A stretch of 64,000 nucleotides of DNA from Tubulanus polymorphus (lineage: Eukaryota > Animalia > Nemertea), in contig NC_134029.1 in NCBI RefSeq assembly GCF_964204645.1, forward strand, positions 14,162,850-14,226,849, in the 5' to 3' direction. The notes under the pieces were generated by a model, which saw only the letters and a list, made by a program, of their open reading frames with translations, did not search any database and was not told the origin of the DNA. This document shows positions 443-51,680 of this stretch, one piece after another (within the stretch, counting starts at the first letter, position 1; every line of letters starts with the position of its first letter). Both the position numbers and the translations under genes were made by a program.

Positions 443-3111
443 TCAGCCAAGTAACTTGGTTTTTTTTACAAATCGACCGGACGTTTTGGAAACATTAGAA
501 TCACTAACAACCTGAGGAGTTTCAGGGGGGTCAGGGAGACTAACTACAGGAGATTCTGGGTAGAAGGGTGGAGATTGAGGAGGTTCAAATTCTGGTAGTC
601 CCTGAACTAATACCGGCGGTATAGGCAGAGTTTCCTCTCCAGTTTTAAGTAAGTGTCTACGATTACGACGCAATTGTTTACCATTAACATCATTAAAATA
701 TGATCTTTCATTATTATCAGCAACTGCTGTTACACGTGCCGGTTGCCAAGTGTCTTTTGCAGACTTTTTGTACCTCACTATTTCACCTGGCCTCAGTGTA
801 GGCAGTGATCTGGCGGCTCTGTCATAATATTTCTTGTACAACTCTTGCCTTGACTGAAGACGCAAGTGATCCCTATTAGAATTTGAATTTGATGGTTTTG
901 ATATGACCTTGGCAACTGGCAGTCTCGTTTTCAGATGTCTACTCATCAGTAACTCTGATGGGCTTTTACCCACACCCTCTAGAGGTGTATCTCTATATGC
1001 CATAAGAGCAAGGTAGATGTCTCCACTAGAATCCTCGGCTTTTTTTAACATGTTTTTAACTGTTTGTACAAAACGCTCAGCTTGTCCATTTGATTGTGGA
1101 AATGTTGGACTGCTAGTATCATGAACAAAGCCCCAGTTTCTGGCAAAGTTCTGAAAGTCTCTACTAGTAAACTGCGGTCCATTATCACTATAGGTAATGT
1201 CGGGTATTCCATGACGAGCGTAGATTGACTTCAACGCGTTAGTCGTTGATTTACTCTGGCAGTAACGCAACTTCTGGATACTTCGAGTAGAAGTCAACGC
1301 AGATCAGATAATCCCGATGTCTGAAGTGAAATAAATCACATGCCACCTCAGCCCATGGACGATCAGGCATTTCGTGAGGAATTAATGGTTCCTTGCGATT
1401 CGCGTTTCTCGTTTCTAGACATATTTTGCAGCGCGATACCATGCGTTCGATGTCTTTATTCATATCCGATCAATATAATATATCTCTCGCTCTGCTTTGT
1501 TTACATTTCACGATGCCGAAATGCGACTCGTGTACGATTTCGAGCATTTCCGGATGCATTTTGGCGGGAACTATGATACGCTGTCCGCGATACGCAATGC
1601 TGTCGATAACACTAATTTCATCACGAAATGTCATATGTTTTCCAAGTTCTGGATTGATATCTCGCTTATCTGTCGGCCAACCGATCATGACCGCAGTGCA
1701 AAGTTGCTGCAATACGGGTTCCGATTTCGTTTCCTCGCATAACTGGCATAACTGGAAGATATTTCTCGACGCTACAGACTTCCAGTTCTTGACAGTCTGC
1801 TGTTTCATCTAAACACGTACGACTGAGCGCATCTGCCACATACATTAGTTTACCCGGTTTGTAAACAACGTTGAATTGATATTCACGCAATGCCATGCAC
1901 ATTCCTTGTAATCGCGGTATAACCTTATCTTACGACTTCGTGCAGATCGACACTAACGACTTATGATCCGTCTCGATTGTAATCTCGCGACCATAAATAT
2001 AGTCGTGGAATTTCTGTGTTCCAACGACGACCGCTAGGAGTTCCCGTTCTATTTTTGCATACCGACATTGTGTATCATTTAAACTGACAGGTTTCCCTTC
2101 TTGTAATAAAACAGCTCCTAGTCCCATTGAACTTGCGACTGCAGTGTGACTGCTTTAGAATTATCGAACAGTTTCAGAACCGGTGCCTCTGAAACTAGTT
2201 TCTTAACGTGCTGGAAGCTCGCATGCTGCGGAGGGTCCCAATGCCATGGTACCTCTTTACACGTAATCTGACGTAACGGTTCTGTAATTCCAGACAGATT
2301 CGGGATGAATTTGCCCAGGTATTCTACCATACCCAGAAACCGCAAAACTGCTGATGAATCGGTTGGAGCCGGCATCTTTACGACTGCTCGAATCTTTTCC
2401 GGTTCAGCTTTCTACCCCTCGTTGCCAATTAAGTGACCGCAGAACTTAACTTCAGGTTCGCATAACTCCAGTTTATTGGAGTTAAATCGGACACCATTGT
2501 TGCGCGACGTTTGCAACATGTCTCGACATGTAGTGTCGTGATCCTTGGATGTCACTCCCCTAAGTAACACATCATCAACTATACACTTCATGTCTGCTAT
2601 GTTCTCATCAATCTGATCGCAGATATCGGTATCTACCGAAGGGAGCATTAAAAATTGTCAGTCTCGAACTATCCTCGTCAAGGACGGCCTGCAAGAATCC
2701 AGATGTAGCATCGAATCTGGAGAAGTACTGCGCTTTCGCACATTAGTTCGCTATGTCCTCAATAGTGACCATAGAATAGTGTTCAAGATGAATCGCTCTA
2801 TTCAAATTGAGCGGATCGTTAAAAATTCGTAATTACCATTTGGTTTGGTTATGATCACACAACTACTGACCCAGTCTGTAGGTACATCAACTTTCGTGAT
2901 CACTTCTTGTCCCTCCATGTGATCAAGTTCAGCTTTGAACTTTGCTTGCAACGCTAATGGTACCTTTCGGCGACTCCACTACTGGAGGTACAGTAGGATC
3001 TAGTTCTATATGATGTTCACCAGGAAGACATCCTAGTCCCTGGAAAACATCGCTGATTTCAGCCAGTATCTCGTCCCTTGTCATTGGCGTTGAAGTGTCT
3101 ACCATCATCAC
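443..3111 (-). pseudogene. Gypsy pol (RT, RNase H, integrase) broken into many ORF pieces
   Basis: RT pieces 'IVDDVL' and 'LRFLGMVEYLGKFIPNLS'; RNase H 'GLGAVLLQ..YAKIERELLAVV..ETDHKSL'; integrase 'HESHFG..C..C', 'SDNGPQF', 'PQSNGQAERFVQTVK'. Confidence 0.92.
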
Positions 3112-3204
3112 TAGTTACTAGGTTTAAATCAGTACAGTACATGTCCCAACACCGGGCTTACATTGTCACTAACAATGTAGAAATCGAGCTCCATTTTACA
3201 GTTC

Positions 3205-4247
3205 TTATACTGACATGGTAAGTTGGCAACACCAAGTGGTGACATTTTTCGAATTGTTGTAGGTCACTAGTTTAGTAGCTGTATTCGTGATGACAGTTGT
3301 TGCTGATTTCAGCTGATCAAAAGTTTCTCGCGGAAGCACATTGGCCTGCGCCCCTGTATCTAATTCGACAGTTGCCGGTATACTGTTGATGCACACATTC
3401 TCAATCCAGTCATCTGACCGACTTAGACTACCGATGGACAGACAGCCTATGAATAAATCATCCTCAATGTCGACAGTGTCAACCGTTTTACTAGGTTTAA
3501 TTTTTCCTCTCGATTTTGAGCAACAACACTTAGAAAAGTAATTTAGTCCTTTACAGTTAAAACATGTCTTTCCATAGGCCGGACATTTACCATAATCGTG
3601 TTTACTGTTACAGTTCCTGCAGGATGCAGATGGAACTGTGATTGACGATTTAAATTTCTGTTGCCTATTCTGTTGCTGTTTGTACCGGACATCGCCTGGT
3701 GGTCTGGTCCTTATAGCGTGAACTGCTTCCATGCCGCTTGCAGAACTCAGGGTCTTTAGCTGAACATCACTGAATTCTTGAGCTCTACATAAATCAATCG
3801 CTTTCGTCAGTGATAGGTTTGATTCTCGTAGTAATCGAGCTCGTAATGCTTCACTTTGAATGCCACACACTTTACGATCTGTAAGCGTTCCAAACTCACA
3901 ATGTTTTGCTTTACTCCTTAGATCGGTTACATATGTATCAATATTTTCACCCCTCTCCTGACTTCTGGTGAAAAACACATGTCTTAAATAAGTGACATTC
4001 TTCTTTGGCTCACAGTACTCTCTAAAGCGATCTTTAATTCAGATCTTTTTTTTCCAGCATCAGTCAATTCCAATGTATTATATACTCGCCTGGCCTCAGC
4101 TCCAATTACGGCTAGGAATTCCGGTGCCTTGCCTTCTCTTTCCGAGGCAATCATAAACAGATCAAAACCCTGTTCAAACTCTCGCCACGACTCGGCAAGG
4201 TTCTTGGACGCCATGTCCAACTCTGGAGGCGGTTTGAAGGTCTCAAT
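3205..4247 (-). pseudogene. Gypsy gag and aspartic protease (frameshifted)
   Basis: KPPPELDM..NLAESW gag start; Cys knuckles CRNCNSKH..CPAYGKTCFNC; protease motif LDTGAQANVL. Confidence 0.9.
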
Positions 4248-4301
4248 TGGAGTAGTTTTGATAGCCCTTACTTGTTACAGTAGATGTGGAAAATCATTTG
4301 T

Positions 4302-4312: not shown

Positions 4313-4408
4313 TGTAAAAGTACAACAAGTCAATACGTGGCCATGATATATAGTTTATTTTAACAACTCTAGATGGCAGCACCTGCCAGTACAAACAAAT
4401 ACATTACA
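4313..4408 (-). repeat. 5' LTR of Gypsy element
   Basis: Direct repeat of 8-103, followed on the minus strand by the PBS. Confidence 0.95.
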
Positions 4409-4983
4409 CTGGAGTTTTGATACTCGACGAACTAAAGGTTATCGGTAAAGTAGCGTGGAATAGCAAAAATAAACAACTCAACGGGCTGGCTATGGACGCC
4501 ACAGAAATGTCTTCTTTGAAAGATATTTTCAAAAAATTATCTGGAGAATGTACGCCAGAGAGGGCTGAATATGAGTTGCAGTTGCTGGGGAGGGATTTAA
4601 GCAGTGATTTTGATATTATTGGACCTTATTCTAATTGTCACACAACAATGGATGCAGCTTTTACGACAGCTTGTCTGTATGATGTCTTGAGAATCATTTA
4701 TGAGTATGGATTCAGGGTAAGTTTTTAAGTTGATTGCAAATGAAACCCACTGATAGATATTCATCTTCAGATATCTTTAATTTTCATATTTCTTTGCAGA
4801 CAAGGGCGGTGGTGACTGATGGAGCCAGCACCAACCTATCGATGATAAAACCACTTATTGGTTATCCGCACTGCCTTTGGTCTGAAGGATGCCCAGGAAG
4901 ATCGGCATAAAGTTGAACCTTGGACGATAAACCCCCATGAACCAGAAAAGAAAATTTACTTATTCATCTGTCCATCACATCAA
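4409..4983 (+). pseudogene. P-element-like transposase fragment #1; its 5' part lies left of the Gypsy insertion, outside the window
   Basis: GVLILDELKV (first catalytic D); GT-AG intron 4717-4799; VVTDGASTNLSM (second D); frameshift, then IYLFICPSHQ (the D/CxxH motif position). Confidence 0.75.
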
Positions 4984-4986
4984 GTA

Positions 4987-5100
4987 CCGTATTTTCCGGC
5001 CAATAAGCCGACTCGGCCAATAAGCCGAGGGCAGTTTTTTAGCCTAAAATACATGGATTTCATAAAGCTTCGCCCAATAAGCCGAGGCCCTTCATCAGAG
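4987..5100. mobile_element. One end of a Tc2/pogo-type MITE
   Basis: TA|CCGTATTTTCCGGCCAATAAGCCG with internal repeats of CCAATAAGCCGA; partner TIR not found. Confidence 0.45.
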
Positions 5101-5414: not shown

Positions 5415-6296
5415 TTATAATTGGTAGTAAATAATGACCTCAAATATATATCGACCACTTTTCTTGATTTCTCCATAACGCGCATGGGTGTATTTACACA
5501 GAAAGTCTGTCCAAACAGAAACTGTTAGGTCTAATCCAAAAATTTGTGTGACGAGTCCGACAAAAACTGCTTCAAGATCCTTGTTTGGCAATACTTTGTC
5601 TGTTGTAAGCTGAAAAAATTGAAAATTTCATTATGTTTTGATGTGTTTTTATTTTGTATTAAGAACAATAAAAAAAATATATTTTAAAACATTGTTTACT
5701 TACCCTGATAATTCTTTTTTTATGTTTTTGCAATTCGGTTACATTTACACAATTCATGATTTCGGTATCAATTGATTTTACCATATCCATGAATTCTGGC
5801 TTGAGTATGTAAAGTCTACCTTTATCATGGCACCAAACCTCAACAGGCAACTTTGAAGACTTGCTCTCATGCAAGATTATTATTTTCGAAAGGACTCGAA
5901 GTTTTCGAAGTTTTTTCTGGGCTTCTGTGTTACCCCGTCGACGTTCACGCTTATACAAAGAAAACATAAGTCCTAGACAGCCCCCATAGTAATAGTGATA
6001 GATCCCATAATAATTTGTGAAGAGTAGATATGAATTGTCCATTGCTCGAAAATTGACGAAGTTTATTATTCCACTCCAACGTGAAATTAACGTATGGATC
6101 CGTCATGGATTGGGTTTTTTTATAACAGCGTAGAAATGTATCATGCAGGTCAAAAATTAAATTGCTCACTAACATTCCTTCTTTCAACATTTTTTTCCTG
6201 CAACATTTTGTCTTTTACATCCTTACAGATATCTATCAAATAGATTGATTCAGTCATTTTAATAGCGGAATTAGCTTTGCGTTATTGTGCCATGGT
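5415..6296 (-). pseudogene. Convergent accessory gene of P-like element #1 (DxGxL-module protein), degraded
   Basis: ORF pieces 5951-6190 and 5704-6042 (YYYGGCL...LPVEVWCHDKGRLYILKPEF); GT-AG intron 5610-5703; last exon 5415-5609 (..FLCKYTHARYGE..). Confidence 0.55.
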
Positions 6297-13800: not shown

Positions 13801-15160
13801 AGTTTTAGTTAGAAGATACCACTCAAGAATTATTGGTCTTCCGCTGGTGAGTATTGTTTTTCTGTTCCACGTGGTCAATCGTTAGACTAGCTATAGGCTC
13901 TCAGGGTATAGCTAGCAGTTGTCCTTTAGGTTCAGTCTGTGAACGGCTTCAAAACACCTGTCTTATATCATAGATGTGAAGCTTGTATGCATGGCCAATT
14001 TATTTGGCCTATGTCGTGGGTGCCGAGAGCAGACAGTGCCCATGGTAAATATACATACTGACGTTTGACCTTGATAGTATGGATTAATTAAACATGCATC
14101 GAATCAATATTTCCATTCACTTTGCAAGTTAGGAATCAATTATGCTGAAACCCATCATGGAAAGTTTCTCTCTGGTTTTATTTTGCAATCGTTACCTTAA
14201 GCTGTGTTCAACATGTGGCATTAAATTAAGCAACATTGATCTTTGCCCAGGAGTGAATCTACTTAAGTACTTTAAAAATGCAGGCAGGCAGGTGCTGCCA
14301 CTGTCAGGTGATGAAGGGTTAAGTAGAGGTTTTCCCATAGGTAGAAAAATCTATTAATATAGTCAGAAAAAAAGAATCGTTAATGTATAGTCTGCAAATT
14401 GTTTGGTATTCTACTCATGTCAAATTTCAAGGTGTTTATGTTATTTTTCTAATAAAAGTACGGTTTTTTGTATTTTTGTCAGAAACCTTACTCTGAGTGT
14501 CTGTAATAGAAAGATGTCATGAGCGTTTAATCTGAAGCTTCCTCGGTTTTTACATTGATTTAACAGAAAAATCAGACATTCATAGCCTATATATAAAACG
14601 CATGTACTTCACCTCCCATATAAGGTAGACTTAATTTAAGGTAATTCAATTAAACATTGGTAGAATAGAAATTTAGAAAATCAACTTAGGCTTTATTTTC
14701 ATTTAGCTCTCCGACATTATACCTACCTTTAAAAAATCTGTAAACCAACAAAATGAAAAAAGCCTGGCCTAAATATTGGGTAAGTAGGCTTGATGTCAAT
14801 TGAATTTCAATATGAACCTAGTGAAGTCATACCTTGTCCCCTTTCAGCAATTTGCATATCTGGGGATGAACTTTTACCTGGTAGCCAGTCTAGTCTGTCC
14901 AGCCAAACCAAGAGTACTCTAACTTAGAAGCCTGACTGAGGGGATTCCCCAGTCAGTGCAGTGCTGGTCTTGAGTGGGATCAGGGAGGTGGGAGTGAATG
15001 GAGTATGAACGAGTCAGCTGTCTTTGATCGTATCAGCGATGCCGCCGTACTTGGAAGAGCTAATTACGTAATACGATATGCGCGAGTTTATGTTCACTCG
15101 GTAATCTCCGTCAACACTCGGTAATTTCCGTATGTTGATAGTTACCGGTTATAATAGAAA

Positions 15161-16644
15161 ATGGCGGCAGGCTATTGTAGCGATGCAGAAATTTCTGACA
15201 CAGAATTCGATGAGGAAGACCTCATAGAGCTTCAAATGATAGAAAAAAATTATTATAAAGAACAATTCAACCTATTTTCTGCCAATGACGATAAAGGTAG
15301 GTTATGATGCTTCCTAACTGAGCATAAAAAGCCTATTATTAAAGAGGGCTGAATGAAAGTAGTCTGATTTAATCCTTTCAGAAAAACAACATAAAAGTCA
15401 CTATTTTAAACAAATATTTTTTATTTATGTAGAGTTGGAATCGCCACAAATCAACGATGAAAGTTTCCAGAAGGAAAAGAAATACTATGAGTAAGTTCAA
15501 ATGATAATTATCCGTGTATTGAAATAAAGCTGACAGGCTGTTCGTAACATTTTATATTATGTACAATATTACTTACAAACATTACTTACAAAATACAAAA
15601 ACGATAGTTAATGAAATGTAATGTACATGATAGGATTTAACAATAAAACTGTGTTTTTCTTCAATTTCAGCACATTATTACACAAATCACTCAAAATCAT
15701 TGAGGAAAACCGACTATTTGCGTATAGCACTCACGGAAAATTGGCGAAAATTTACGCAAAGTTAGTTTTAAATGAGATTGATTCTGTATTCGTTCAGACA
15801 TGGTATTCTCATATCCTATCATCGCTAGACCAAGCTTTTCCGAAAAACAACGATTTTGATAAGATGTGGGCAAACTTTCATACGTATTCTAGTGGTAAAG
15901 AAGCAGATGATGATGTAAAAACTTTGGTTTTTAAATGTGCGCAGAGCACGGATTTCGACAATCGGGCAGGCAGTCTTTTCATTCAGTCATTGCTCAAGGA
16001 GATATTCAAAGGTTTAAATTGACAAAAGATATGAATCGACCTCTAAAAATTCTAGTCAACTAGCTCCACTCACCAACGAAGAGGAACAAGCATTGAGGTA
16101 TGCAGCAGGATATATTCCTCATGCACTGATTAAGTACTATTCGCGCTTAAAAAACAACACTGCTGCTGCAGCAATTCTAAATATCTTAGAACATTGGAGA
16201 GCCGAATGCGACACAAAGGAAAACTTGGAACAGAACAGTTACCTCGATTATACAACTTTCTGGATCAAGGCTGTTGATCGTGGCGGTCTTTTCCAAGTAA
16301 AAGACAGTGTATACAACTTATTTAAACTATTAGAGAATATTGTTCGCCCTCATCTCCAAATAAATGATGTACACACATTGAACGGATTAAATATCAAAGA
16401 AAAGCTGCTTCAACAAATCGAACGGAGTGTAACCGTTAAAAATTCTTGGAAGACATTGACACGTTTTGTCAGTGACGAAAATCTGAGTCGCAATTTGCTT
16501 AGACGAGTAATTACATACTGGATCGACATTCGTGTCACTGCATTCAAGGATGCTTTCATGTACATTAGAAAACAAAATAATATCAAAAATGTATCCAAAA
16601 AAGGTGAAAAATCATTAAGAAAAGTATTGGCTAACAAGAACTGA
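15161..16644 (+). pseudogene. Accessory gene of P-like element #2 (about 388 aa when repaired; acidic N-terminus, EEQALRYAAGY and DRGGL motifs); one 1-bp frameshift near 16018
   Basis: Exons 15161-15296, 15433-15490, 15671-16644 joined in frame by GT-AG introns (phases 1 and 2); AATAAA at 16704-16709. Confidence 0.8.
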
Positions 16645-16724
16645 TCTATTTTGTACCTGTCTACATGTATTCACTTTTTCATTTGTAATACTACTGACAT
16701 ACAAATAAATACACTTTTCGACTT

Positions 16725-19577
16725 TTAAGTACGTTTTTTTCTTTTAAGAGGCACAACCAATTCAATGTCTATGTCGTCATCTCTTCTGAATTTACCACGG
16801 AAATTGCCTTTTGATGATGCCTTCGCACAATTTCCTGCTATCATAAGGTTGAGTTCATTGTGGCCAAAAGCGGCGGCAGTGGGGTTGTCACTGTTTCCTC
16901 CACAACTTCTTTGTTTCGAGAAGTGCTCCTCTAACGGATCTTGGCTGAGCTTCTCGCTGAGGAAATATTCCACTCCATTGATATTTAATTACTCGACTGT
17001 CAACTCAGTAAAAGAGAACACTGAAAATATATAAAATCAAATTTTGTTCAATAATGCTGATCACATAAGGTTTTCTATCGATATAAGGAGAAGAAACACA
17101 CCAGTTATCCGGAAGCCTTCAATTGTTTCCCAACTCAAACATTTTCTTGCTTTTTGTGCCTTTGTCAAACCTTCATACATGTCTTTTTCTCCTTCCCATT
17201 CGTCCAGGAATGGTATGAATTCTTTGAGAAGCCACTAGAATCACAAGAATATTCAGTTATAATTTAATTATATGTGAAACAATACATTCCAAATGAAATA
17301 ACTATAAATCTACCTTTAATCGTTCGTCCGATTCACTACGATACTCCTTTAAATCTGGATTCCTCTTTCTTATGCTCTCATAAGCTGTCGAAACATTCAG
17401 GCAATCGAAAAATTTTGTTTATCATCCGTATGTAAAGAATCAATGAACTGAGCTCTGGTTCATTATAAAGTTCAAGCGCCACTGCCACAGAATTACTCAG
17501 AACCTGAAACAGAAAGAATATTAATTTGTGATTCATAAGATGAGGGAGGTGGGAGGAACAGTAAAAAAAAAACATTAGCCAAGAACTCAACATACTTGGG
17601 CAGCTAAATTCACATGCATACGTGTCGCTGGTGTCAAATGCAAATGTTCATGTCGTAATTTTCTTAGACGATTCAGTCCAGGAGCCTGCCTATTAATTCC
17701 AACTTCTCCTTCAACTAGTCGAAGCAATTGCGTCCATTTAATAGGCTTTCCGCGGAACTGTAATATACAAAAATTTATCATTAGGTACATTAAATAAATC
17801 GACTAGACACAAGTCTATCAGGAAGGTGGGACCTCCCTGGGTCTATTTAGACCTACCATTAAATCACGTGATTTTCTGTTGAATCCAGAATTTTCGAGGT
17901 TGTTGCGGCTAGTTTTGATCAAGTGCGGCACATCACATATAAAATAAATTCTCCGAGACTTGTCATATCTGTTGATCGTCCAGTATGTAATTTTTTCATC
18001 TCATCTGTGCATACGATAAAACTTCGGGTTAGGAGTGGCTCCATCACTTACGAATGCTCTAACAAAAAAGCCGATTCCCTCAAGGATCTGGACAGCTTCC
18101 CAAACACACGGATACAAATTATGGCTGCTGAATCCTTGGCACGGAAAGTATCCAAGCAAAATTTTCATGTTCGAAAACAATCCACGAGCTATAAAAACAC
18201 ATACATGAGTCGCTAGATCTTTCTCATTGTCATCCAACGATCGTTTAAATTTCTCAATTACGTTATTGATGTCTCCCATTTCGCAAAATCCAATCAGCTG
18301 GCCAGTTTTTTTGGAATAGATCAGTTCCGATTTAATTTTCATTTCATCATATAGCAAACACACATTTTTTTGAAAATCTGGCAATGTTTCAAAATTCATG
18401 TCATTTAAGGCATGTTCAATGAATTCACTATTGAATCCTGAACATGGATCTGTGAAGCGTGTATAACCATCCAAAGTACTAGAGTGGGGTAGCTGTAAAA
18501 ATCCGGAGTCTCGAATGAACTTGTACACCGACTTCGATTTGTGTCGCAAAGCTATGCACCACTTGATTATCAAAGGATGCCATCGCATCTGTTTGGCGAA
18601 TTTCGAATTTTGAAGACGCTGTTGTTGCCAAAGAAGTTCTTGAACAGATCCACTCGGAAAGTCATTATTGAATTGTTCGATATTTTCCTCAACCGATTTC
18701 GTTAACAACACTGATAGTTCAGGGGTAACATCGACATTTGCAGCTTCAAAATTATATTGTTTTAGCCGTTCTTCAACTTTCTTCAAATTTTGACGTTGAC
18801 CTTGTGTTTCACGGAGACGGATCTTAAGCTGTTCATTTGACAAATAATCGTATCGTACATTACTATTTACACAGGTTCGCGATGAAGTTGTGGATATCAA
18901 ACGGCTTCGCATTGTGAAAAGGCATCCACGAAATGTTTTACACGCATCACAGCGATCGACAAATATATTATTTACAATTTTACAAGATACATGGCGAATA
19001 ATTTTACTTGAATTTGTTGTCTGAACGGTAGCTATAACATCACCCTTCTGATTTCGGAACTCATTCAGACCTCGACCAGTGATGACATCAACAAAATCAG
19101 GGTTACCGCAGCACAGTTTAAGTTTCTTAAGTTCCAGCAATTTGTCCTCGATTTCTAATTTATCGCCAAAGAATCAGTCACTTCTAGTTGATCGATAAAG
19201 AATCGGTGTTCAGCACTGCATTCTACCATCCGTATGCAGTTATCAGAATAGAAAACATACGTTTTTTCATTCACTTTAACAAAACCATTTTTCGACGCAA
19301 TGTCCTGAAAGTTATCTGGCGGAGGGTTTTCGACGTTCCATGTTTTTAAAGTGATATTGACTGGAATATTTCTTGATTTATTTTTCGCCTTACGCCAACG
19401 TTGCAATTTTTGCCGGCAAAGATTGCAAATAAAATCTGGGTGTATACCGGCGGTGTCTGTAGTGAAATCAATGCCAAATAATAATGAAACGTGTGAACTG
19501 AACTTCATTTTGTCGTATCGATTACGGTCATTATTGGCTGCAGATAAACCACACAAGCGACAAACATCATCTGCCAT
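16725..19577 (-). pseudogene. P-element/THAP9-family transposase #2 (about 830 aa when repaired) with a RAG1-N-terminal-like zinc finger; 3 frameshifts and 1 stop
   Basis: Exons 19577-17857, 17757-17596, 17503-17314, 17234-17102, 17020-16725, all GT-AG. Motifs LQLPHSSTL, LLYDEMKI (D), FVSDGATPN (D), CDVPHLIKTSRNNL, MHVNLAAQVLSNSVA, LSQDPLEEHFSKQRSCGGNSDNP (E). Confidence 0.9.
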
Positions 19578-20732
19578 CTTACTGAAAAAATTTAAAAACA
19601 ATGACATTATCTATCATTAAATCATTGATTCTTGACTTAGTCACCAAGGGGGTAGGCCTTTTTTGATATCACGATGGTATTGTATACTTTTTTCTTAGAT
19701 AGGCTTCAATTGACACGTATTTGTATATATGTATCATAGCAACATGACTACACATATCCGGATATGCGCAGTGGTCAATGAATAATTCTCATATTTCAAT
19801 CGTTAATTTAGAAGTGTTCCGGTTAGCGGCCACTACATTGATGAAGGCAAAGGAATGCAATGCATTTCAACGTGTTTTATGGTATAACATCACCCTTCTG
19901 ATTTCGGAACTCATTCAGACCTCGACCAGTGATGACATCAACAAAATCAGGGTTACCGCAGCACAGTTTAAGTTTCTTAAGTTCCAGCAATTTGTCCTCG
20001 ATTTCTAATTTATCGCCAAAGAATCAGTCACTTCTAGTTGATCGATAAAGAATCGGTGTTCAGCACTGCATTCTACCATCCGTATGCAGTTATCAGAATA
20101 GAAAACATACGTTTTTTCATTCACTTTAACAAAACCATTTTTCGACGCAATGTCCTGAAAGTTATCTGGCGGAGGGTTTTCGACGTTCCATGTTTTTAAA
20201 GTGATATTGACTGGAATATTTCTTGATTTATTTTTCGCCTTACGCCAACGTTGCAATTTTTGCCGGCAAAGATTGCAAATAAAATCTGGGTGTATACCGG
20301 CGGTGTCTGTAGTGAAATCAATGCCAAATAATAATGAAACGTGTGAACTGAACTTCATTTTGTCGTATCGATTACGGTCATTATTGGCTGCAGATAAACC
20401 ACACAAGCGACAAACATCATCTGCCATCTTACTGAAAAAATTTAAAAACAATGACATTATCTATCATTAAATCATTGATTCTTGACTTAGTCACCAAGGG
20501 GGTAGGCCTTTTTTGATATCACGATGGTATTGTATACTTTTTTCTTAGATAGGCTTCAATTGACACGTATTTGTATATATGTATCATAGCAACATGACTA
20601 CACATATCCGGATATGCGCAGTGGTCAATGAATAATTCTCATATTTCAATCGTTAATTTAGAAGTGTTCCGGTTAGCGGCCACTACATTGATGAAGGCAA
20701 AGGAATGCAATGCATTTCAACGTGTTTTATGG
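19033..20732. repeat. 850-bp direct tandem duplication (19033-19882, 19883-20732) covering the 5' end of the transposase
   Basis: The same 150-aa ORF occurs at 19155-19607 and 20005-20457; no nucleotide differences spotted by eye. Confidence 0.95.
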
Positions 20733-21060
20733 TGTTAAATTAATATGTGGCCGATTGTCTCTTCAAAGTATGTTTAATGTCAAAGTTTGCTTACCAACTG
20801 AGGTTATTTTGCCGTAAAATATTCAGTTTTCATCCGATTTTTTCCTCTGAAAAACGTGAAAGTTGACCGCGACACGCCGTACAAGAAGAATTCAACTGCC
20901 CATGCGCAAGGCTGATGCTATTGTCAGTACAGCATGTGCTAGTTTGGCAAACTTGACGGCACAGGCCTAACGTCTAGGAAACGGACCTGTGTGATGGGAT
21001 ATTTTACCATCACACACTCGCTGCAGCGGTGACCCAGTTAGCAGCGGTGACCCAGTTGAC

Positions 21061-21882
21061 CAATTTAAATTACATGGTTTCCAGAGCAAAGGCTCGACTG
21101 TGCTACTAGCATAAACTCATACAAATCATTCATTAGAGCATTATCCATTCGCCAACCCCTATGAAGCTGAATTTTGAAAGAGGGCCTCGTTCAAATTTAA
21201 ATTAGCTTTTTCGCGAAATTCTGATCGCAAAAATATCTGTTTCAAAAAGCCAATCAGAAAGCAAAGACTCCTATGATTGGCTTAGCCGCAGAGATCAGCA
21301 GGTGTTCACGTGAACCCGTGGTATCATCTACCGTTTTACTTCCAGGTTTTATTCTAAGATCGAAATTGTATTTCAATATCAATTTCTGTGAAATCTTTAG
21401 TTGATTTGGTTTTTGGGAGGAATATTTTTATTTTCATTACAGAAAAAATCGTTGATCATTGTGCAAAGTCCGGGAAAAATAGCTTTTTCTCAAATCGGAT
21501 GGATGACCTTGAAATGCTAATTAGTTTTCAAACTGCAAATTCAATCAAATTTTAATCCGCAAAAAAATATCAAATCCAATTCAATTTTACTTTATTGAAC
21601 TAGGTTAAACAGCAAATCCAATTCAATTTTATTCTATTGAGCAATTTTCAAAAAATTCAATACTATTCCCATTCAATTCATAAAGGTCAATAAGGGAAAA
21701 GATTTATCTGAGGTATTTGTTCCTGCCAGCTCAAGTCGCTGTCTGTGCTACTTATGAAAGCACGATTGAATTGTGTAAATTATTAGCCTTGGATTGACTT
21801 TAGTCTATCGAGCTGGGACAAATTTAACCCACAGAATGTATCATTTGACAAGCTGGCCATAGTGCCCCTTGGGGCTCTTGTT
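21061..21882 (+). repeat. HINE family B copy, 5'-truncated
   Basis: Aligns to 60020-60861; same 3' hairpin GCCCCTTGGGGC. Confidence 0.75.
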
Positions 21883-22808
21883 GTAAGAGAAATTATAAAG
21901 TATACAATACATCCCTTGGGGTCGAGCTTAGGACGTCAATCTTGTGAGGGGCACATCCCCAGCCCCACTCAAGGCGTGGATTCACCTATTGATGGACAGA
22001 GATCATTCTATTGGTCTAGGCACAGGCAACCTCGCTGTCAGTATCCAATAGGTGGAAAGTTGAATGTGGCCGACGAGGGATAAACCCATCTCCACATAGT
22101 GGACCCTGTCTCAGCCAGAAGCAGATTGAGTCTGGTTGGTTTGCCCCTGTTTGCCACCAGTTTCAACACTAGGAGCCCAGTGTTCACCTCCCTATTTCCA
22201 GACGACAGGGCATGAGACGTGCATGAGCCATGAACATGCCAACAAGTACGATTCATCTGTATTCATTATGTTTCCTTCATTAAAAATGATCGTCAGCACG
22301 ACACTACGGTCAACAATTATGAAGTGCGTCAAAATATGATTTTTTCACAAAAAATACTTACCTCCCGGTCTTGAGTCTAACTATTTTAAAACAAATATGA
22401 TCAGGGTAGTTGGCACCAGCTGATGGCCTCTTCTCAAAGTCATTTTTGGCCTGCACCAGTCGTCTAAAGCAACTTGGCTATTATGTCAGTACAATTAAAT
22501 GGCAAAAGCCATCAAAATTGTACTTTCCGCGATAACTTAGCCATAAGAAACTTCAGTACCGGGGTATGATATGCCCCGGTACTTAAGTTTATATAACGAT
22601 GTATAATATATATAACGACCTTAGATCGGACTGATCGAAAAAAGTAGCTCAAATTAGCCATAAATTAGTCATTTATTTATCCTTCACTTTTTGCGTGTAG
22701 TTCACATACTACCTGCAATGGTGCTATTTATGATGTTATCTATGACAATCAGCGCAGGCATACGCGCCCATACGCGTAGCCTATGTGTAATCGATAAGAT
22801 AAACATCA

Positions 22809-24764: not shown

Positions 24765-26863
24765 TGTGGGCGGCCATTCCCGCCAAAAATCAGCGTTTCA
24801 TCTATTTGTCTGTACTTTGACAAAATGTCATAGTACAACCGCCAAAATGTGTAAGCATAACGTCAAATTGTGTAATGCGGCTAAAAAACACAGGGGGCGA
24901 CACTGTACGGACAGTATTTTGCAGTGTTTTTCTAGCTTTGCGATCATCTTAAGGTCGTTTCATTGAAATAATTTGGTAATTCGCGCGTATTAAAGCAACA
25001 AGGTATATTTCTAAAAGGAAATATACTGCGACAGGTGGTTTTGCAAAGTCATTAAAAATCAAGATCAGAGAATTTTGGAGAGAGAAGTCATAAAGAATGA
25101 ATAAATTAATGAAGATTAAAAATTGGAAGTAATAAACGAACAGTTTAAAAGCGGAAGCACCCGTTGCGATAAAATGAAGATTTAAATATTACAAAATCAT
25201 TATGAAAAACGAAATGAAAAGAAACAAATGCTACCGTTGATAGTATTCATGTACAAATTGTAGAATGAGAATAGAAAATTTAATTGAATACAAGTCACGA
25301 GAAGAGCAAAGAGATTTAGACAATCAATCCGGGGCTTGAAATAAAGAAACTCCTTAAAATGAATAAACTCGAATGCAAGATCTTTGCTTTCGAATAATTT
25401 GTTAATTACAAGGGTAGACCTAAGGTTTATATAAATCTATATTTTTGAATTTTGAAATCAGGGGATCTAAAAATAGTATTCATCATTAGTGGGACGTCGA
25501 TTCAGCTATTAATTTTTCAGGGAAGAGCCGATCAGCCTTCCAGAAAGGGAATGCGCATCATCCGTGAGTGTAGCAAAAAAATTATCTCATTGCTAATTAA
25601 AGTTGAAAAATAACATGTACGTTGTTTTCTGAATACTAAAAGATTTTTAATATTATTTACGTTATGTCTACTTAATTGCGGAAATCCGATGTATTTGCAG
25701 TACTGGGAACAATAAAGTATTGAATAAAGTAATAATTAAATATATTTGATGAGTATCAATAAAGTATATTTGATCTTGAATTTGAGCCCACTAGGTGGTG
25801 GTGGTATTGGAAGACACCAGGTGGTTCGATCAACTTAATATGCTCCAGCGCGTGGCGCTGTCGCAAAAATCCGTTATGTTTCCAATGTCTCCGTTTTAAC
25901 GTATGCGCATTAGGCTGAATAAGTGTTGAAAAAGTCTAAGTCGAGAAATCAGTACAGTGCACAGGCATCATGACAGTGTTTTCATATTTCAAAACTGGGT
26001 CATGTCAGTACGGTATTCGCTTGAAATGAACCAGCGTGAAGTTTAGCAGTGGGATCACGATGTCTAAATAATCTCGTGTATCATATGCTTGCGTATCATA
26101 TGTTAACACAATTAAATGACTTGTCCAAATAAATATACAGTGATTGCAACAAAGTTCATAATGGTTAGCATTTCGTGATCAGCATTTTCGGGATTCTAAC
26201 ATGATAGCACCGTATAAAATACATCAGCGACTAGACTGGTTGCCGGTCTCTATTCTGACTGTGAATGCAGGTGGCGCAGAATTTGACAGGCGACCAGTCT
26301 AATCAGCGACCTGGAGTCATCAAAGTTCAAATTGAATTGAAATAAGTTCAGTATTTTTCGGGGCTCGAATCTGGTAGCGCCGCAAAAATAAACGAGTCAC
26401 ATTGGGGTCATCAATGTTCAAATCGAATTGAAATAAGATAATTATTTATTGTGGGATTCGAATCTAATAGAAACGGAAACATTGGAGTCATCAAAACACA
26501 CATTCATTATGCGTACTGACATGACCCAGTTTTGAAAGTTCTGACATGTAGTGACGCCTGCGAACCGATTTCTGGACTCAGAATTTCCCCAACACTCAAT
26601 ATAATGCGCATGCGTTAAAAACGGAGACATTGGGAACATTACGGTTTGATACGCGCAAAATTTTTTCAATGAAACGACCTTGAGATGATCGCAAAGCGAG
26701 AAAAATACCGCAAAATACTTTCCGTACAGTGTCGCCCCCTGTGTTATTTAGCCTCATTACACAATTTGACGTTACGCTTACACATTTTGGCAGTGTACTA
26801 TGACATTTTGTCAAAGTACAGACAAATAGACGAAAGCTGATTTTTGGCGGGAATGGCCGCTCA
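24765..26863. mobile_element. Long-TIR (Mutator-like) non-autonomous element nested in the piggyBac element
   Basis: 24767-24975 inverted against 26655-26863, continuing 25870-26010 against 26510-26645; TAGTAATG flanks both ends. Confidence 0.7.
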
Positions 26864-37354: not shown

Positions 37355-38030
37355 TCTCTGGTTGGTGTGCTCCCGTGCTACTGAGGAAGATTCAGGAGGC
37401 CCAAACCAAGTCCGCCATGCGAACTGCGTGGAAGAAGCGTTCTGGTCCGGCTCCAGCGGCGCAAGGTTCGGCACGTACTCAAAAAGGACCAAATCAAGCT
37501 TCGGCACTTTCTCAACTGGCTACAAATGCCATTTGGAGAACGAGCGCACAACAATCAAACAATCCAACAAGCGCGTCGAGCCCCGTTCGGTCATTACAGT
37601 TCCAGTTCGTATCGGGTCAAGTGGAAGGCTCCATAAAGGGCTCTTCCTTTCGGAAAAAATCTCTGAAATGAATTCTGGGGCCAGTGTGAGGTTGTCTGTA
37701 ACAGGCAGCCACCAGGTACCAGGAAAAAACGTCTCATTGAGATATCTAAAGCCATCTCATTGTACAGAAAGTAGTGAATCTTGATTCGAGCAGTACGAAG
37801 ACACAATACCAAGTACCTTGCTGTAATCCCAATTTTGGATGTTTGCAGCTTGGATTGATGAATTAGAATTGGGTTGCGAAACTCAACTTGAACAATTGAC
37901 TGACACAACCAGTGTCGAGGAGACTATCTTAAGATTATCTGCGGATCGTGATTTGCAGCAAGAAGAGATTCCAATGTTCGATGGGACACCAACATTATGG
38001 CCGCTATTAGTGGAGCACTTCCATCATGGT
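37355..38030 (+). pseudogene. BEL/Pao gag fragment
   Basis: LSADRDLQQEEIPMFDGTPTLWPL..EHF (BEL gag 'FDG.P..W..F' motif); inverted homolog of 50040-50650. Confidence 0.7.
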
Positions 38031-41000
38031 TCACACACTACCGGGAAAACGGGGAAAACTTGGGAATTTTCTAATCAGATTTCCCGGTTGGGAAATAAAA
38101 GGAAATTTTTGGTTTACCTTTGTCAGCAGTATGAGCTTGGCATTGAGCCAATTCATGTAAAATCGCGGTACGTTTTTTTATGTGAGCATTTTTTCATTGG
38201 TTAAACGACGTATAATCGATGCGATTGAAGACATGACGAACCTCCTTCGATGACATGGTCAAATTTGTTAAAATTCGACGAAAAAATGTTTTTGGCGGGA
38301 AAATTCTTAGCTCTTGCGTATATAATTGCAATGACCTCGATTGGGGGGCGTCGTCTCTACATGCGAATGTGATTGGCTGTTTTTGGGATATATGGAGAAT
38401 TCCGGCGCTACTAAAATAATTATGGGAAAGTCATTAATGGCAAACGTTTTATTGGACTAGGTGCCGTATATGTGCGAATCTTAAATGCTCATTGCTGGTG
38501 AGAATATAATTATTTCACATATCGCCATAGGTATTGTTTCGTTTTAATACCCGGTGATTGTGTTGATAGAGATCGAAGTGAAGCACCTTGCGTAGTGAAC
38601 GTTCACTACACAAGGCCTCCACGTGTGCGCGGGAGCGCTAACATTAGACTGTTGCACTCACAAACACACGCTTATACACACTACTATATGGTGATGCTGT
38701 AACGCTGCTTGGCGCGTGCACGTTTGGTATGATAACAGGCTGAATAATCGTCGTAGCAGAAGATGAGCGCTGTGTTTTCTGTTTGATCGAATTTGTAATA
38801 AATTGTAATTTCTTGTGACCTGAAAATACCAAGCAGCAAACTATAGGTTTAGGTCGAAGTCTGTATATTGTAGTGGTAAATTCCAGGATCTAATACTATG
38901 CCCCGGTGTTTTAGCTTCCTTGGCCATACATTGGAAGAGGTTTAGTTTCCAAGACTCAAGTTAGAGGTAAATACAATCTTCTCTTTCAAAATAGATGATC
39001 AAATTTATTTACATTCCAATAGTAATATTATGATGAAAGATTGAAGTTTCAATCAAGCACTTGTCTCCACTGGTAGGCATTTTCAAAAATGCGTTCATTC
39101 ATAAGAAACATCGTCGTGAACGTGTGAATACAATCCCTGTACTGCAGGTGTAATGATGAATGTGTGAAGACGTACACTACGTCTTCACACAATAACTGAT
39201 ATACATGCTGTGTCCGTATTAACAGGTGTATTCATATTCCAACAAGAAAATTCATCTCTGGCTTACAATTTAGTTTAATTTTTTTATTGTTGTGGCTGGT
39301 AACATTTCTCGACACCAATTAGGCAGGGCCCAGCTTATTTGAAACCAGCTAGTTGCAGACACCTAGGCATTGCTCAAACCCAATACTTCAAGGAAAATTA
39401 TATATTTCTTCTGCCTAAATATTCAGTGGAGGTGCTTGACTCAAACAACACATGTTGATGGTTTGGTGGTAAAATATTGAATTAACCGCAAAGTACTGTG
39501 GCCCATAATTGTCATTTTATTTTCACAAATGATATTGAAACTCAACTGTGTAGTCGCATTTTTGAAAACCTGTTGAAATAGATCTTGCAAATCTGTGTCT
39601 CAGCTGCCTTTCTTCTCAATCAAAATTAAAGTTCATTTCAAAATAGTTGAATTCTTGCCTTTCTTAAATTATATGTTTTATACTGTTTCAGAATGGATAA
39701 CAGGCGGCTAAATCTTTTTTGCTGTTACCCTTGGCCATCTGTCAGACTAGCCCAGGCCCAGTTTTGGGTACAGCTAGCAGTTGGCTTTTAGGATCAGTCT
39801 GTGAACTCTTTCAAACTAGTTGTAATAAATCACATTGCCCTTTCAAGGTCATTTGGTTAGTTTTAATTAGGGTTTTCTGTTTCTTCACAGAAAACCCTAT
39901 TGAAATTCGCGTGATTATTAGGGTTTTCTGTTACATCACAGAAAACCCTATTGAGATTCGCATGTTTCTTATTATTATTATTATTATTATTATTATTTTT
40001 TTCCACACTTTTTTTGTCAAAAGTACATAGGCTTTTTTACATTACCGCTGTTGCCGATACAATCTGTTTGATATCATTCAGCTCACTTCGATCTACAAAT
40101 ACTCCGTGCAAATTTTGAAGAATCAACGTTACAAAAGCGCTGTCGGGCCGTAAACATCGAAAATTGAGCCCCATTCAAAGAGCCGACATGTTTTTCTAAG
40201 TCGTCTTTCCGAAATCTACCGCACGTTTCTTGTCACATCAATTATCAATTCAAGCATAAATTAACAAATTTATTACCGAAAGATTGCACATTCTGTCGCG
40301 GTTTTTAAAAACTAATTTTAACAATAACCCATTTTCCTCATCAAATTATAATACCAATACACAGGAAATTTACTACTTTAGATTTTAAAAGCACTGTCGA
40401 GCCGTAAACATCGACAAATCGACGTGTGTCACTACATCGTCGTTCCGGGAATCAGCTGCGAGTTTCTCCTCATTCTGAGAATCAAATCGAGTACAAATTA
40501 ATTTATTACTACCAGTGATTTGGCTGCGGGCGTCAAGCAGTTAATTTAGCAATACCTATTTTTCTTTACCAAATTTACCGTGTTTTTACTAAGATAAATC
40601 ATAAGTGTACCGGGGAGTCGTAGGCCTAAACTAAACACGCCGAAGAGATATAGCGGAGAAAAGCTGTTATGTCGACGAGGTATCAAAATAAAAGAATATA
40701 TTACTTTATTCGGCCGCAGGCTTCAACCTCTATATCAATACCATCAATACTCTATATTTCCTACAGTACATACCGATCATTGTCAAATCCACAAGGTATT
40801 TACTAAATACAAGTATAAAACACACTCCTATCCGTATGCTGGACTCGCACTTGACATTCGGAGTAAGCTTTCGCTTTGGGGGAAAGGAGATCGTTCGCTG
40901 TGTCGCTTGAAGTGTTTATCGAGTTTTACGCGACCTTAAAGCTTTAGTATGGTGGCTGATAAGATAACAAAACACGAATATGCAAATGAGGGCGACATTA

Positions 41001-41040
41001 CGACAAAACGAAAAAAATAAAATAACGCGAGAAAACAATG

Positions 41041-43915
41041 ATTTTGATTTTGTCGCCCGGGGCAATTCATTATTTTGGTTTTATCGCCCACGACAATTCA
41101 TTACTTTGGTTTTATCGCCAGCGACAATGCATTATTTTGGTTTTGTCGCCCGCGACAATTCTTCTTTTTGGTTTTGTCGCCCGCCACAATTCATTATTTT
41201 GGTTTTATATTTTGTTTTTGTCGCCCGCGACAATTCATTATTTTGGTTTTATCGCCCGCGACAATTCATTATTTTGGTTTTGTCGCCCCGACCATTCTTT
41301 TTTTGGTTTTGTCGCCCGCGCCAATTCATTAGTTTGGTTTTGTCGCCCGCGACAATTCAATATTTTGGTTTTGTCGCCCGCGACAATTCAATATTTTGGT
41401 TTTGTCGCCCGCGACAATTCATTATTTTGGTTTAATCGCCCGCGACAATTCAATATTTTGGTTTTATCGCCCGCGATAATTCATTATTTTGGTTTTATCG
41501 CCCGCGACAATTCATTATTTTGGTTTTGTCGCCCGTGACAATTCACCATATTGGTTTTGTCGCCCGTGACAATTCACCATTTTGGTTTTGTCGCCCGCGA
41601 CAATTCATTATTTTGTTTTGTCGCCCCGACAATTCTTTTTTTGGTTTTGTCGCCCGCGACAATTCATTAGTTTGGTTTTGTCGCGGGCGACAAAAAAAGA
41701 ATTGTCGGGCGACAAAACAAATTCAATATTTTGGTTTTATAGCCCTTGACAATTCATTACTTTGGTTTTATCTCCAGCGACAATTCATTATTTTGGTTTT
41801 GTCGCCCGCGACAATTCTTGTTTTTGGTTTTGACGCCGGCGACAATTCATTATTTTGGTTTTATACTTTGTTTTTGTCGCCCACGACAATTTTTTTTTTT
41901 GGTTTCGTCGCCCGCAACAATTCAATATTTTGTTTGTATCGCCTGCGACAATTCATTATTTTGGTTTTGTCGCCCGCGACAATTCATTATTTTAGATTTA
42001 TCGCCCGAGACAATTCATTATTTTGGTTTTATCGCCCGCGACAATTCATTAGTTTGGTTTTATTGCCCGCGACGATTCATTAGTTTGGTTTTGTCGCCCG
42101 CGACAATTCAATATTTTGGTTTTATCACCCGCGACAATTCATTAGTTTGGTTTTGTCGCCCGCGACAATTCATTATTTTGGTTTTGTCGCTCCAGACAAT
42201 TCATTATTTTGGTTATATCGCCCGCGACAATTCATTATTTTGGTTTTATCGCCCGAGACAATTCATTATTTTGGTTTTATCGCCCGCGACAATTCATTAG
42301 TTTGGTTTTATCGCCCGCGACAATTCATTAGTTTTGTTTTGTTGCCCGCGACAATTCAATATTTTGGTTTTATCACCCGCGACAATTCTTTTTCAGTCCA
42401 CTTGGGACTTTAGTCCCAGCGGGCTATTGTGTTCACTTTTCGTCCATCCGTCCGTCCATAGACGGAATCCAGTTATTTTGGGAAGTTTTGAAGACGCTTC
42501 AAGGTAATGTCGTGATATTTGGTTTATACATGTATCTACCCTAGACACATTGTCAGCCAAAAAACTGGCCCTGTCAGATTCAAGATGGTCGACTGGCAGC
42601 CATTGTTGTTTGCCAAAATCAGCACTTTTTAAACATTTTCGAAGTTTTCGTGGGAAATTTTGGAGACGCTTTGATCAATTACCTTGATCTTTCGTTTATA
42701 TTTGAATCTACCAAAGGCCCATCAGCATATGAAAATTGGGTCGATCTGACTCAAGATGGCCGTCCTATGACCTTTTTAGTGCCCAAAAATGTCAATTTTG
42801 GCCAGAATTCTAGGTCCTGTAGCTTCCTACTGGTTTGCCATTTCTCATTGCAATTGCTGATGGGTATTCTTTAGAGAGGGATGTTTTATACCTGGGACAA
42901 GTATTCTTGATCAGCCAATTATGACGCAATTGGCATCCATCTTGGTGTCATCAGAACTCATTCGTAGGTGGGAAAAGGTTTTTCCACATTAAATTGATAC
43001 CTAAGCATATTGTGTTACTATATTCAATTGGAAAGTTGTAGCCCATAACGTGTTCTATGATTTTGGTGAGTTTCAAGGTCATTGGTTTTTGTATGTGGCC
43101 ACCAGGGGGCGTTGAATAATACAATAACTTAGTATTGCTATATTATATTTGTACCATGGCATATTTTGTTACCATGATCAATTACAAAGTTGTAGTTCAT
43201 GACATCGCCTATGATTGTGGTGAGTTTTTAAGGACATAAGTTATTCCATATAGTCATCAGGGGGCGTTGAATAGTAGAAAAGCTTAGTTTTTCCTTATTA
43301 GATTGGTACCTAGGCATAGTTTGTTACCATGATCCATTGCAAAGTTGTAGTTCATGACATCGTCTATGATTGTGGTGACTTTTTAAGGACATTAGTTATT
43401 CCATATAGTCACCAGGGGGCGTTGAATAGTAGAATGGCTTAGTATTTCCATATTAAATTGGTAACGAGGCATATTTTGTTATCACAATCAATTACAAAAT
43501 CAAAGCTGCTCACATGTTCTATGATTGTGGTGGGTTTCAAGGTCATTGGTTTTTGTATATGGTCACTAGAGGGCGTTATGTTTTGAAATTGTTAGATTGT
43601 TGAGCATTTGAAACCACTTCCCAAGTGAGCATGGTGTCCCTGGACCCCTAGTTTGGTTTTGTCGCCCGTGACAATTCATTATTTTGGTTTTGTCGCACGC
43701 AACAATTCAATATTTTGTTTTTGTCGTCCGCGACAATACATTATTTTGGTTTTATCGCCCGCGACAATTCATTATTGTGGTTTTATCGCCCGCGACAATT
43801 CATTATTTTGGTTTTATCGCCCGCGACAATTCATTATTTTGGTTTTGTCGCCCGTGACAATTCAATATTTTGGTTTTGTCACCCGCGACAATTCATAATT
43901 TTGGTTTTGTCCCCG
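41041..43915. repeat. 31-bp satellite TTTTGGTTTTGTCGCCCGCGACAATTCATTA, two blocks (41041-42390, 43652-43915) split by a HINE insertion
   Basis: Head-to-tail units without unique spacers; internal palindrome TTGTCGC-CC-GCGACAA. Confidence 0.95.
42393..43651 (+). mobile_element. Complete Helentron-like HINE family A element inserted at a T-run in the satellite
   Basis: 5' subTIR CACTTGGGA with hairpin GGGACT..AGTCCC; GTCC microsatellite 42442-42458; about four 155-bp core repeats; 3' subTIR TCCCAAGTG, hairpin GTCC-CT-GGAC, terminal CTAG|TTT. Confidence 0.75.
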
Positions 43916-50691: not shown

Positions 50692-51680
50692 AATAAACAT
50701 TGACGAATCTCTCATTCTCTGGAGAGGTAGACTTTCCTTCAAACAATTTATTCGCACAAAGTGTGCACGTTTTGGGATAAAATTCTCTATTCTTGGTGAG
50801 AATCTGGCATTACCCATTCTTTACATGTGTACTGTGGAAAACCAATCCAGCCCATCCAGAATGATGATATATTATATTAGCCCTTAAAAAAACGGAACAA
50901 TAAGTTCTTTGATTGTCAGAAAAGTTACTGGACAAAGGATATGCCTTGTTCACGGATAACTACTACACATCCGTACGGCTAGCACTCTACCTACACAGTT
51001 GACGAATTAATTGTGTGGTACCATGAGTACAAACCGTGGAATACCAAATGAGTTGGTAGTCAAGCAACTGGAGAAAGGCTCCTCAGGATTCAGGTGCTCT
51101 GATCAGATGCTCGCAGTGAAATTTCGAGCTCTAAAGGACAAATCGAATGGGAAAGAGAAAGTTGTATATATGCTCTCCTCAAGTAATTCTGATAGCATTG
51201 TGCAGATTGGTCAAAATAATAGAGGTGAAAACATTGAAAAAATACAGGCTGTCAGGGAATACAATCTCTGTATGGGCAGTGTCGACATCACTGACCAGAT
51301 GATTCATTACTATGATGCGGCGAGGAGAACAATGAAATGGTATAAGAAGATTGCGGTTGTTTATGCTTTGCATCTTGAATGCCCATCTTATTGCCAGGAA
51401 AAGAGGGTCTAAACAGGACTTTGTTCATGACGTGGTATCTGCGATGTTTTTAAACCATCCTGTTATTGACAACAACACTGCCAGTCGTTTAGTAGGCAGA
51501 CACTTTATGGAGAGAATTCCTTCAACACCGGCCAGACCGCACCCAGGAAAGAGATGCCCATTGTGTAAGGCGCGACGTGGCATATGTGGTGAATCATTCT
51601 ATCATTGCTAAACCTGTCCAAACAAACCTGGGCTACATCCAGTTGAATGTTTTTAGATTTATCACACAATCAAGAACTAT
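50692..51680 (+). pseudogene. piggyBac (PGBD4-like) transposase 3' remnant
   Basis: IDESLILWRGRLSFKQFI..FGIK, LFTDNYYTS, YN..MGSVDITDQM..KWYKK, C-terminal Cys-rich RCPLC..C.TC..LH..CF; degenerate right end GCAGTGAAAGGATTTA about 51955-51970. Confidence 0.88.

Follow-up and report, generated by a model that had tools for sequence, protein, structure and literature searches.

The 64,000 bp window analysed here (contig NC_134029.1, positions 14,162,850 to 14,226,849, from the assembly GCF_964204645.1 of the nemertean Tubulanus polymorphus) carries, at 14981–21047, what is probably a dead copy of a two-gene cut-and-paste transposon of the P superfamily with a split transposase, the two proteins of which are likely to assemble into one transpososome. 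This reading draws on sequence, on structural models, and on analogy with the Drosophila enzyme. P transposase is a single-gene enzyme. Here the predicted transposase, encoded on the minus strand, ends where the RNase H chain of the Drosophila structure ends, and comparison by predicted fold and by profile shows the product of a facing plus-strand gene, referred to here as the partner, to correspond to the P C-terminal domain (CTD).

The partner consists of an acidic N-terminus, a helical domain, the predicted P-transposase CTD, and a basic tail. The CTD (16018–16641, plus strand) contains the motifs YxAGY and RGGL and is identified by fold and profile matches to chain 6p5a_B of the Drosophila structure. 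A model of the C-terminal 208 amino acids (predicted local distance difference test, pLDDT, 87) matches this chain with Z 12.5 and a root-mean-square deviation of 2.2 Å over 118/118 residues. Among 48,161 chains it is the only one with Z of at least 8, the next being at 7.3, and it also ranks first in Foldseek (probability 0.99, E 0.18). Profile searches place 6p5a_B first as well, with E 0.017 and E 2.3e-4, through YxAGY and RGGL, and 4 out of 120 members of the partner family weakly match PF12596 (Tnp_P_element_C). At E ≤ 0.001 the family comprises 1201 clusters; its 150 best members are stand-alone proteins, 133–535 amino acids in length, none of which is matched by the transposase profile. 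The CTD motifs and the basic tail, with a median net charge of +8 in the last 40 amino acids, are the best conserved part of the family, and the target-contacting helix of the Drosophila CTD is described as basic (PMC7776569).

The middle helical domain of the partner (15672–16019, plus strand) is conserved in the family and its model (pLDDT 94), like that of the CTD, is all-helical. There is no clear fold match to it: the best Z is 6.7, and Foldseek has no hit at E ≤ 0.001. A reading of it as a second CTD that has degenerated was dropped, the hhalign probability being only 17%. No fused long relatives of the partner were found among proteins of 938–2675 amino acids, in a weak search of that length range alone, and a search of 365–2000 amino acids gave one match, of 467 amino acids. 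The ESM Atlas returned no usable match for the homolog queried, and none of the 76 pattern matches in viral contigs is a relative.

The transposase contains, in order, a zinc finger resembling the N-terminal zinc domain (NZD) of RAG1, a helix-turn-helix (HTH), and an RNase H domain with a GTP-binding insertion. It is matched in Pfam by PF21787 (E 3e-25), PF21789 (E 1.5e-9), pieces of PF21788 (E 0.002–0.004) and, weakly, by an HTH. The catalytic residues in the model are D411, D512, and E766, and the C/DxxH signature in the interval from the second D to the E is present as DVPH at residues 549–552. A profile of the clade aligns with Drosophila chain 6p5a_A (E 2.3e-34) up to residue 564, a region after which a disordered linker leads to the CTD (PMC7776569). 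The window transposase stops 67 amino acids after the catalytic Glu and has no CTD. Among 34 transposases, these being the window model and 33 longer homologs from sources that include Hydractinia, Hydra, Stylophora, Branchiostoma, Patiria, Diadema, sea cucumbers, and Ptychodera, a QDxxE motif is recognisable in 24, and all 24 end no more than 81 amino acids after it, the other 10 being truncated, mis-predicted or divergent at this motif. The CTD profile matches none of the 34. All 35 aligned transposases match the P-type PF21787, and the core is not of the CMC type. The predicted core, the C/DxxH signature, and the terminal inverted repeats (TIRs) place the element in the P superfamily. A canonical single gene with a fused CTD is not what is found, as the CTD sits on the facing gene; the profiles are complementary and the folds match, and the two genes would therefore be complementary parts of one known protein.

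This pairing is not confined to the window. In a transposase-led scan of metagenomes, covering the best 80 of 321 confirmed stretches, the partner is present in 25 of the 80 loci, always on the opposite strand and convergent in 24. By nucleotide clustering the 80 loci form 65 clusters, 21 of which have the partner; where at least 1.5 kb of downstream sequence is available (25 loci), it is found in 22. Both genes are enclosed by TIRs of 32–51 bp, starting CATAG, in loci L029, L062, L066, and L080; two of these four (L029 and L062) have 7-bp target-site duplications (TSDs), with none in L066 and L080. In Branchiostoma lanceolatum the homologs have consecutive accessions (CAH1269054/55) on one contig, the adjacency of the genes being inferred from accession order, and there are near-identical copies in Branchiostoma on different contigs. 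The gene trees, built from 21 of 27 pairs after leaving out 4 near-duplicates and 2 short hits, have 13 of 18 splits in common, with a mean of 0.23 and a maximum of 3 in 2000 label shuffles. Transposase and partner distances are correlated (Mantel Spearman rho 0.72, p 1e-4), over paired loci in which the transposases are 30–84% identical. This congruence is explained by joint descent as one unit and does not itself imply binding. Long intron-free open reading frames (ORFs) of both genes are seen in L010, L023, and L029. In the case of L025 (4371–8617), intact transposase and partner ORFs lie head-to-head and the pair groups alike in both trees.

Searches for TIRs and TSDs within the window sequence alone found no TIR pair, and copies of the element were studied through sequencing reads and contigs. 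The left TIR, 37 bp long and starting CAGGG, is placed at 14981–15017 (plus strand) because of the mixed read flanks before 14981, seen in 34 raw reads (agreement 0.55) with more distinct flanks in other runs, and because of an opposite-strand joint of 15017 to 21047, present in 3/4 runs in one comparison and in 4/4 in another (at most three samples, from two studies). In other copies the right subterminal region (20734–21047, minus strand) is followed by the TIR after 21047; in the window copy this TIR is absent, and the TSD is unreadable because the right TIR has been lost. Directly to the right of the truncated end is a very high-copy repeat, at 21060–22017, which may be linked to this loss. 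The TIR as recovered from the reads is short and starts 5'-CA, in keeping with the P superfamily, in which the TIR consensus is CANRG and the TSD is 7–8 bp. The TIR of the window was found in none of the 80 metagenome loci.

Raw-read depth is about 20–58 inside the element versus 6–8 outside, with both genes rising together, and in run X1 the bins that cover the two genes and the right end have 130–244, against 39 and 43 for a pair of quiet bins in the flanks, read depth not being equal to copy number. At the sites of lesions in the window copy, the reads have other letters at 18003 in 43/47 and at 16990 in 43/48, while the indels read otherwise near 16016 in 14/22, near 17413 in 14/31, and near 19166 in 10/17. 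The five lesions are private to the window copy. The reads show that transposase and partner both lie inside one multi-copy, TIR-bounded mobile unit, and the family would appear to be young, with intact members and varied insertion sites. In 20 reads a different sequence follows the same TIR at 15017, and three internal deletions are present in reads (15795–16332, 17259–19460, and 17415–18536), which suggests that there are non-autonomous derivatives.

In the window copy the transposase gene, rebuilt by six-frame reading and exon modelling, occupies 19577–16725 on the minus strand, with five predicted exons (19577–17857, 17757–17596, 17503–17314, 17234–17102, and 17020–16725) encoding about 833 amino acids and four GT-AG introns of 99, 92, 79, and 81 nt. 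The partner gene, at 15161–16644 on the plus strand, has three predicted exons (15161–15296, 15433–15490, and 15671–16644) encoding about 388 amino acids; its two introns, both GT-AG, measure 136 and 180 nt. An 80 bp gap (16645–16724) separates the two stop codons. This reproduces to the base the gene structures of the first-pass annotation of this sequence, which had described a five-exon minus-strand transposase and a three-exon plus-strand gene with GT-AG introns and stops 80 bp apart. A Patiria protein is 39% identical to the transposase model over 871 columns and colinear across all exon joints, homology being the sole support for the joints as predicted. Two frameshifts (near 19166 and 17413) and two stops (near 18003 and 16990) interrupt the transposase and one frameshift (near 16016) the partner; the copy is dead.

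The 5' region of the transposase gene is duplicated in tandem, perfectly over 850 bp (19033–19883/19883–20733). This duplication is either private to the window copy or an assembly artefact, because no contig spans its joint: depth is 0 at 19818–20438 in 3/3 contig runs, and about half in raw reads. The earlier right limit of 20732 is merely the end of this duplication, and the element spans 14981 to 21047. There is a splice acceptor directly upstream of the transposase ATG and a donor-like site near 20797 on the minus strand, so placed that a 5' untranslated region intron from about 20797 to 19582 is likely. Close copies of the first 12–17 bases of the TIR are present in two transposase introns (17539–17555 and 17816–17832), possibly as putative binding sites or by chance.

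At the start of the window transposase the predicted zinc finger (19400–19577, minus strand), related to the RAG1 NZD and to the Chapa domain, has the first zinc site only (CRxC ... HPxxxCxxC). Pfam finds no THAP domain in this protein, with weak matches to zf-AD and RAG1_imp_bd in its place. THAP is present in 2/35 transposase homologs and in the split locus L045, and PF12560 in 9/35 (best E 2e-10). When 20 clade members are combined into a profile, its match to the RAG1 NZD structure 21WB has E 3.1e-12 over residues 13–131, far better than that to a ZAD (E 5e-4), so that by profile the clade carries a RAG1-type NZD. Both zinc sites are kept by most homologs, the window and Patiria proteins keeping the first only, and most homologs are without the vertebrate H2 insert. 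Of the Chapa motifs, which were defined by Kapitonov and Jurka in 2005 in a paper that allowed an origin from a separate unknown transposon (PMC1131882), both loose forms are present in 15/34 proteins and the strict form H-x3-L-x3-C-R-x-C-G in 9/34. By motif there is thus a putative Chapa domain here, Chapaev being represented through its published motifs rather than by sequences. In a midpoint-rooted tree with no outgroup, the 19 proteins labelled as NZD fall in a single clade that has 20 members (support 0.91), the remaining one being truncated at its N-terminus. The clade is nested in a wider lineage of split elements, which outside it have THAP or lack a recognised head. This NZD-headed P clade includes cnidarians, echinoderms, and amphioxus. 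In it, as judged by these matches, an NZD-type domain stands in place of THAP, where one might guess at a role in end binding or in protein contact.

Some partner homologs also carry additional domains, a PHD finger in 5/120 and C2H2 fingers in 3/120, neither of which is in the window partner. By its match to ING4 (E 7e-16) the PHD is of the ING type, RAG2 being absent among 58 matches, and it occurs in partners from a hemichordate, crinoids, and a starfish. In the homologs P0038, P0044, P0048, and P0059 it follows an acidic N-terminus; P0001 and P0043 have a C2H2 finger. One in four of the PHD-bearing partners is inside the clade of NZD partners, in a sample of protein sequences biased to relatives of the window copy.

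If the Drosophila structure is a guide, the core would recognise the transposon ends, cut them and join them, with GTP, to target DNA. The partner would supply the CTD in trans, docking between the RNase H and GTP-binding domains and bridging subunits; it would hold the looped-out transposon strand, and its basic last helix would reach the target DNA. The structural basis of these steps in Drosophila is reviewed in PMC7776569 and PMC10824691. Fission would be tolerable because the break falls in the linker that is disordered in Drosophila. Complex prediction for the intact natural pair of L010 gave a score of 0.00 in both runs, with alignments unused and the partner fold uncertain, and speaks neither for nor against such an assembly. 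Several points weigh against a shared transpososome of this kind. A CTD truncation of human THAP9 is described as hyperactive (bioRxiv 10.64898/2026.09.03.748810), and the CTD therefore need not be required. The sequence evidence for the CTD match (E 0.017 and 2.3e-4) is weak by itself, Z 12.5 is near the range reachable by chance for helical folds, and about 180 extra N-terminal residues of the partner have no counterpart in the solved structure. Three loci with at least 1.5 kb downstream (L008, L026, and L051) have no visible partner, even with a wider profile, and in L025 the partner is upstream and divergent. The linkage test started from transposases only, leaving partners without a transposase uncounted. 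The hyperactive THAP9 truncation, the PHD and C2H2 fingers, and the three loci lacking a visible partner would suit an arrangement in which the core works alone and the partner, derived from the CTD, serves in regulation or targeting, as a repressor, an end-protector, or, through PHD or C2H2 in some, a chromatin tether, rather than as a needed subunit. Although it is the main rival, this is unlikely, given that in Drosophila the CTD links subunits and touches the transposon as well as the target DNA (PMC7776569), that the partner has been kept, co-diverging, with cores only 30–84% identical, and that it is the CTD motifs and the basic tail which are most conserved.

The remaining explanations are much less probable than a split transposase. 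That the products of both genes are joined by trans-splicing into one fused protein, the split being genomic only, would fit parts that are complementary halves of one known protein, but both genes have a start and a stop to themselves, the partner brings a conserved N-terminal domain of its own, and the long ORFs of L010, L023, and L029 are intron-free, making this very improbable. An equally small chance attaches to the element being a relative or precursor of the RAG transposons with a partner that is the RAG2 counterpart by descent, an idea prompted by the convergent layout, the NZD-type domain, and the acidic stretch and PHD of some partners. The core, however, matches P transposase, the match to RAG1 being limited to residues 99–271; the partner model is all-helical with no kelch propeller; the PHD is ING-type; and the TSD of relatives is 7 bp, not 5. 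Least probable of all is that the plus-strand gene is a host gene or chance passenger beside a truncated P element. While its homologs are annotated as uncharacterized host proteins, and the window copy is without right TIR and TSD, read depth is evenly elevated across the two genes and falls off beyond 14981–21047, there are several flanks at 14981, and neither the linkage and co-phylogeny nor the near-identical Branchiostoma copies on different contigs would be expected of a passenger.

Compared with known systems, the split element is not of the canonical THAP/fused-CTD type, nor is it RAGL or Chapaev. With the Drosophila P transposase (6P5A/6PE2), THAP9, and zebrafish Pdre it has in common the HTH, the RNase H DDE core with a GTP-binding insertion, DxxH, the CTD fold, and short TIRs starting CA (PMC7776569). 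It differs from them in that the putative CTD is encoded by a gene of its own, convergent with that of the transposase and with N-terminal domains added, that the NZD-type finger replaces THAP in the clade of the window copy, and that two relatives have TSDs of 7 bp, where fly and zebrafish have 8 bp. The RAGL, ProtoRAG, and TransibSU elements (RAG1L with RAG2L) likewise have two convergent genes inside TIRs and an NZD/Chapa-type zinc domain at the start of the transposase, and an acidic stretch and PHD are present in some partners here. The core, in contrast, is P-type rather than Transib-type, the partner is a helical transposase piece rather than a kelch propeller, the ING-type PHD is absent from the window copy, and the TSDs of L029 and L062 are not the 5-bp TSDs of RAGL/ProtoRAG (PMC8355894), that of the window copy being unreadable. 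Chapaev and N-RAG-TP have the N-terminal zinc domain with the 2005 motifs in common with this element (PMC1131882), which differs in its P-type rather than CMC core and its two genes, N-RAG-TP being known here by its description in PMC8355894. The idea that N-RAG-TP is P-related found no support in that paper and was dropped. The C/DxxH signature is shared by the hAT/P/MuDR/Kolobok/Dada group, within which Kolobok0 (transposase and KolX) and KolobokP (transposase and an opposite-strand His-Me nuclease) are likewise two-gene elements (PMC9587614). They differ from the present element, whose termini are CA, not RR, whose TSD is other than TTAA, and whose second protein is a domain detached from the transposase.

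The two-component P-superfamily lineage proposed in the first-pass annotation is upheld by the TIR-bounded unit, the conserved tail-to-tail linkage, and the congruent trees. The check that it proposed, for tail-to-tail pairs inside common TIRs, gave the 24 convergent loci of 25 and the four TIR-enclosed relatives, and the comparison of both gene trees that it proposed gave the 13 common splits; orientation is not random, at 25/25 on the opposite strand, and the plus-strand gene is not a single-copy host gene, either of which it had named as contrary outcomes. Its description of the element as ProtoRAG-like holds for the layout and extends to the N-terminal NZD-type domain, which it had not mentioned, but fails for the catalytic core, the partner fold, the TIR, and the TSD. 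The likeness to ProtoRAG is one of layout and one common domain, not kinship of core or partner. The second gene is indeed separate and facing, as annotated, but it is no RAG2-like acquisition made independently; it appears to carry the CTD that the transposase itself lacks.

Among transposons, two papers confine the Chapa domain to RAG1L and Chapaev: according to PMC4411706 no further known transposable elements encode it, and a 2026 preprint has Chapaev as the only lineage consistently keeping it. It may tentatively be suggested that NZD-headed split P elements make up a third kind of transposon, so far unrecognised as such, which carries the RAG1 NZD and may have donated it, and that they reached a RAG-like design independently. 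This would be an obligate two-subunit transpososome from convergent genes, with the small subunit making the contacts to target DNA and, in certain lineages, contributing an ING-type PHD that steers insertion to H3K4me3 chromatin as the PHD of RAG2 does.

Elsewhere in the window, a decayed and distant P-like RNase H gene fragment at 4354–4990 (plus strand) is faced by an ORF at 5662–6102 (minus strand) to which the partner/CTD profile gives a weak match (E 0.09 within the window); the two may be what is left of another split-P element. Decayed pieces resembling the gag, protease, and integrase (rve E 1.7e-8) of a long terminal repeat retrotransposon are at 443–4274 (minus strand). Long inverted repeats, 93–95% identical and about 12 kb apart (37380–38023 and 50045–50624), contain between them a 31-bp tandem array (40915–43885), a reverse transcriptase-like ORF (46340–46993), and a gag-like ORF (49236–49838). 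There are also an element of about 2.1 kb with long inverted arms (93–98%) and no long ORF at 24767–26863, and a piggyBac-like transposase fragment (DDE_Tnp_1_7, E 1.5e-12) at 51011–51412 (plus strand).

No description of two-gene P elements, or of an NZD on P transposases, was found in the literature searched, outside which lie Repbase Reports and subscription journals, where two-protein P families may have been entered. A natural and widespread split of the P transposase at its CTD linker would mean that a two-gene cut-and-paste element can arise by fission and not by capture, the direction of the split (fission versus fusion) being unrooted in a comparison with no fused-CTD P transposases. 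The split pair would provide a switchable two-part system for the role of the CTD in end holding and target choice, in P and THAP9 alike. The NZD-headed P clade is a candidate source to be considered in the origins of RAG, with a domain that would have moved between superfamilies.

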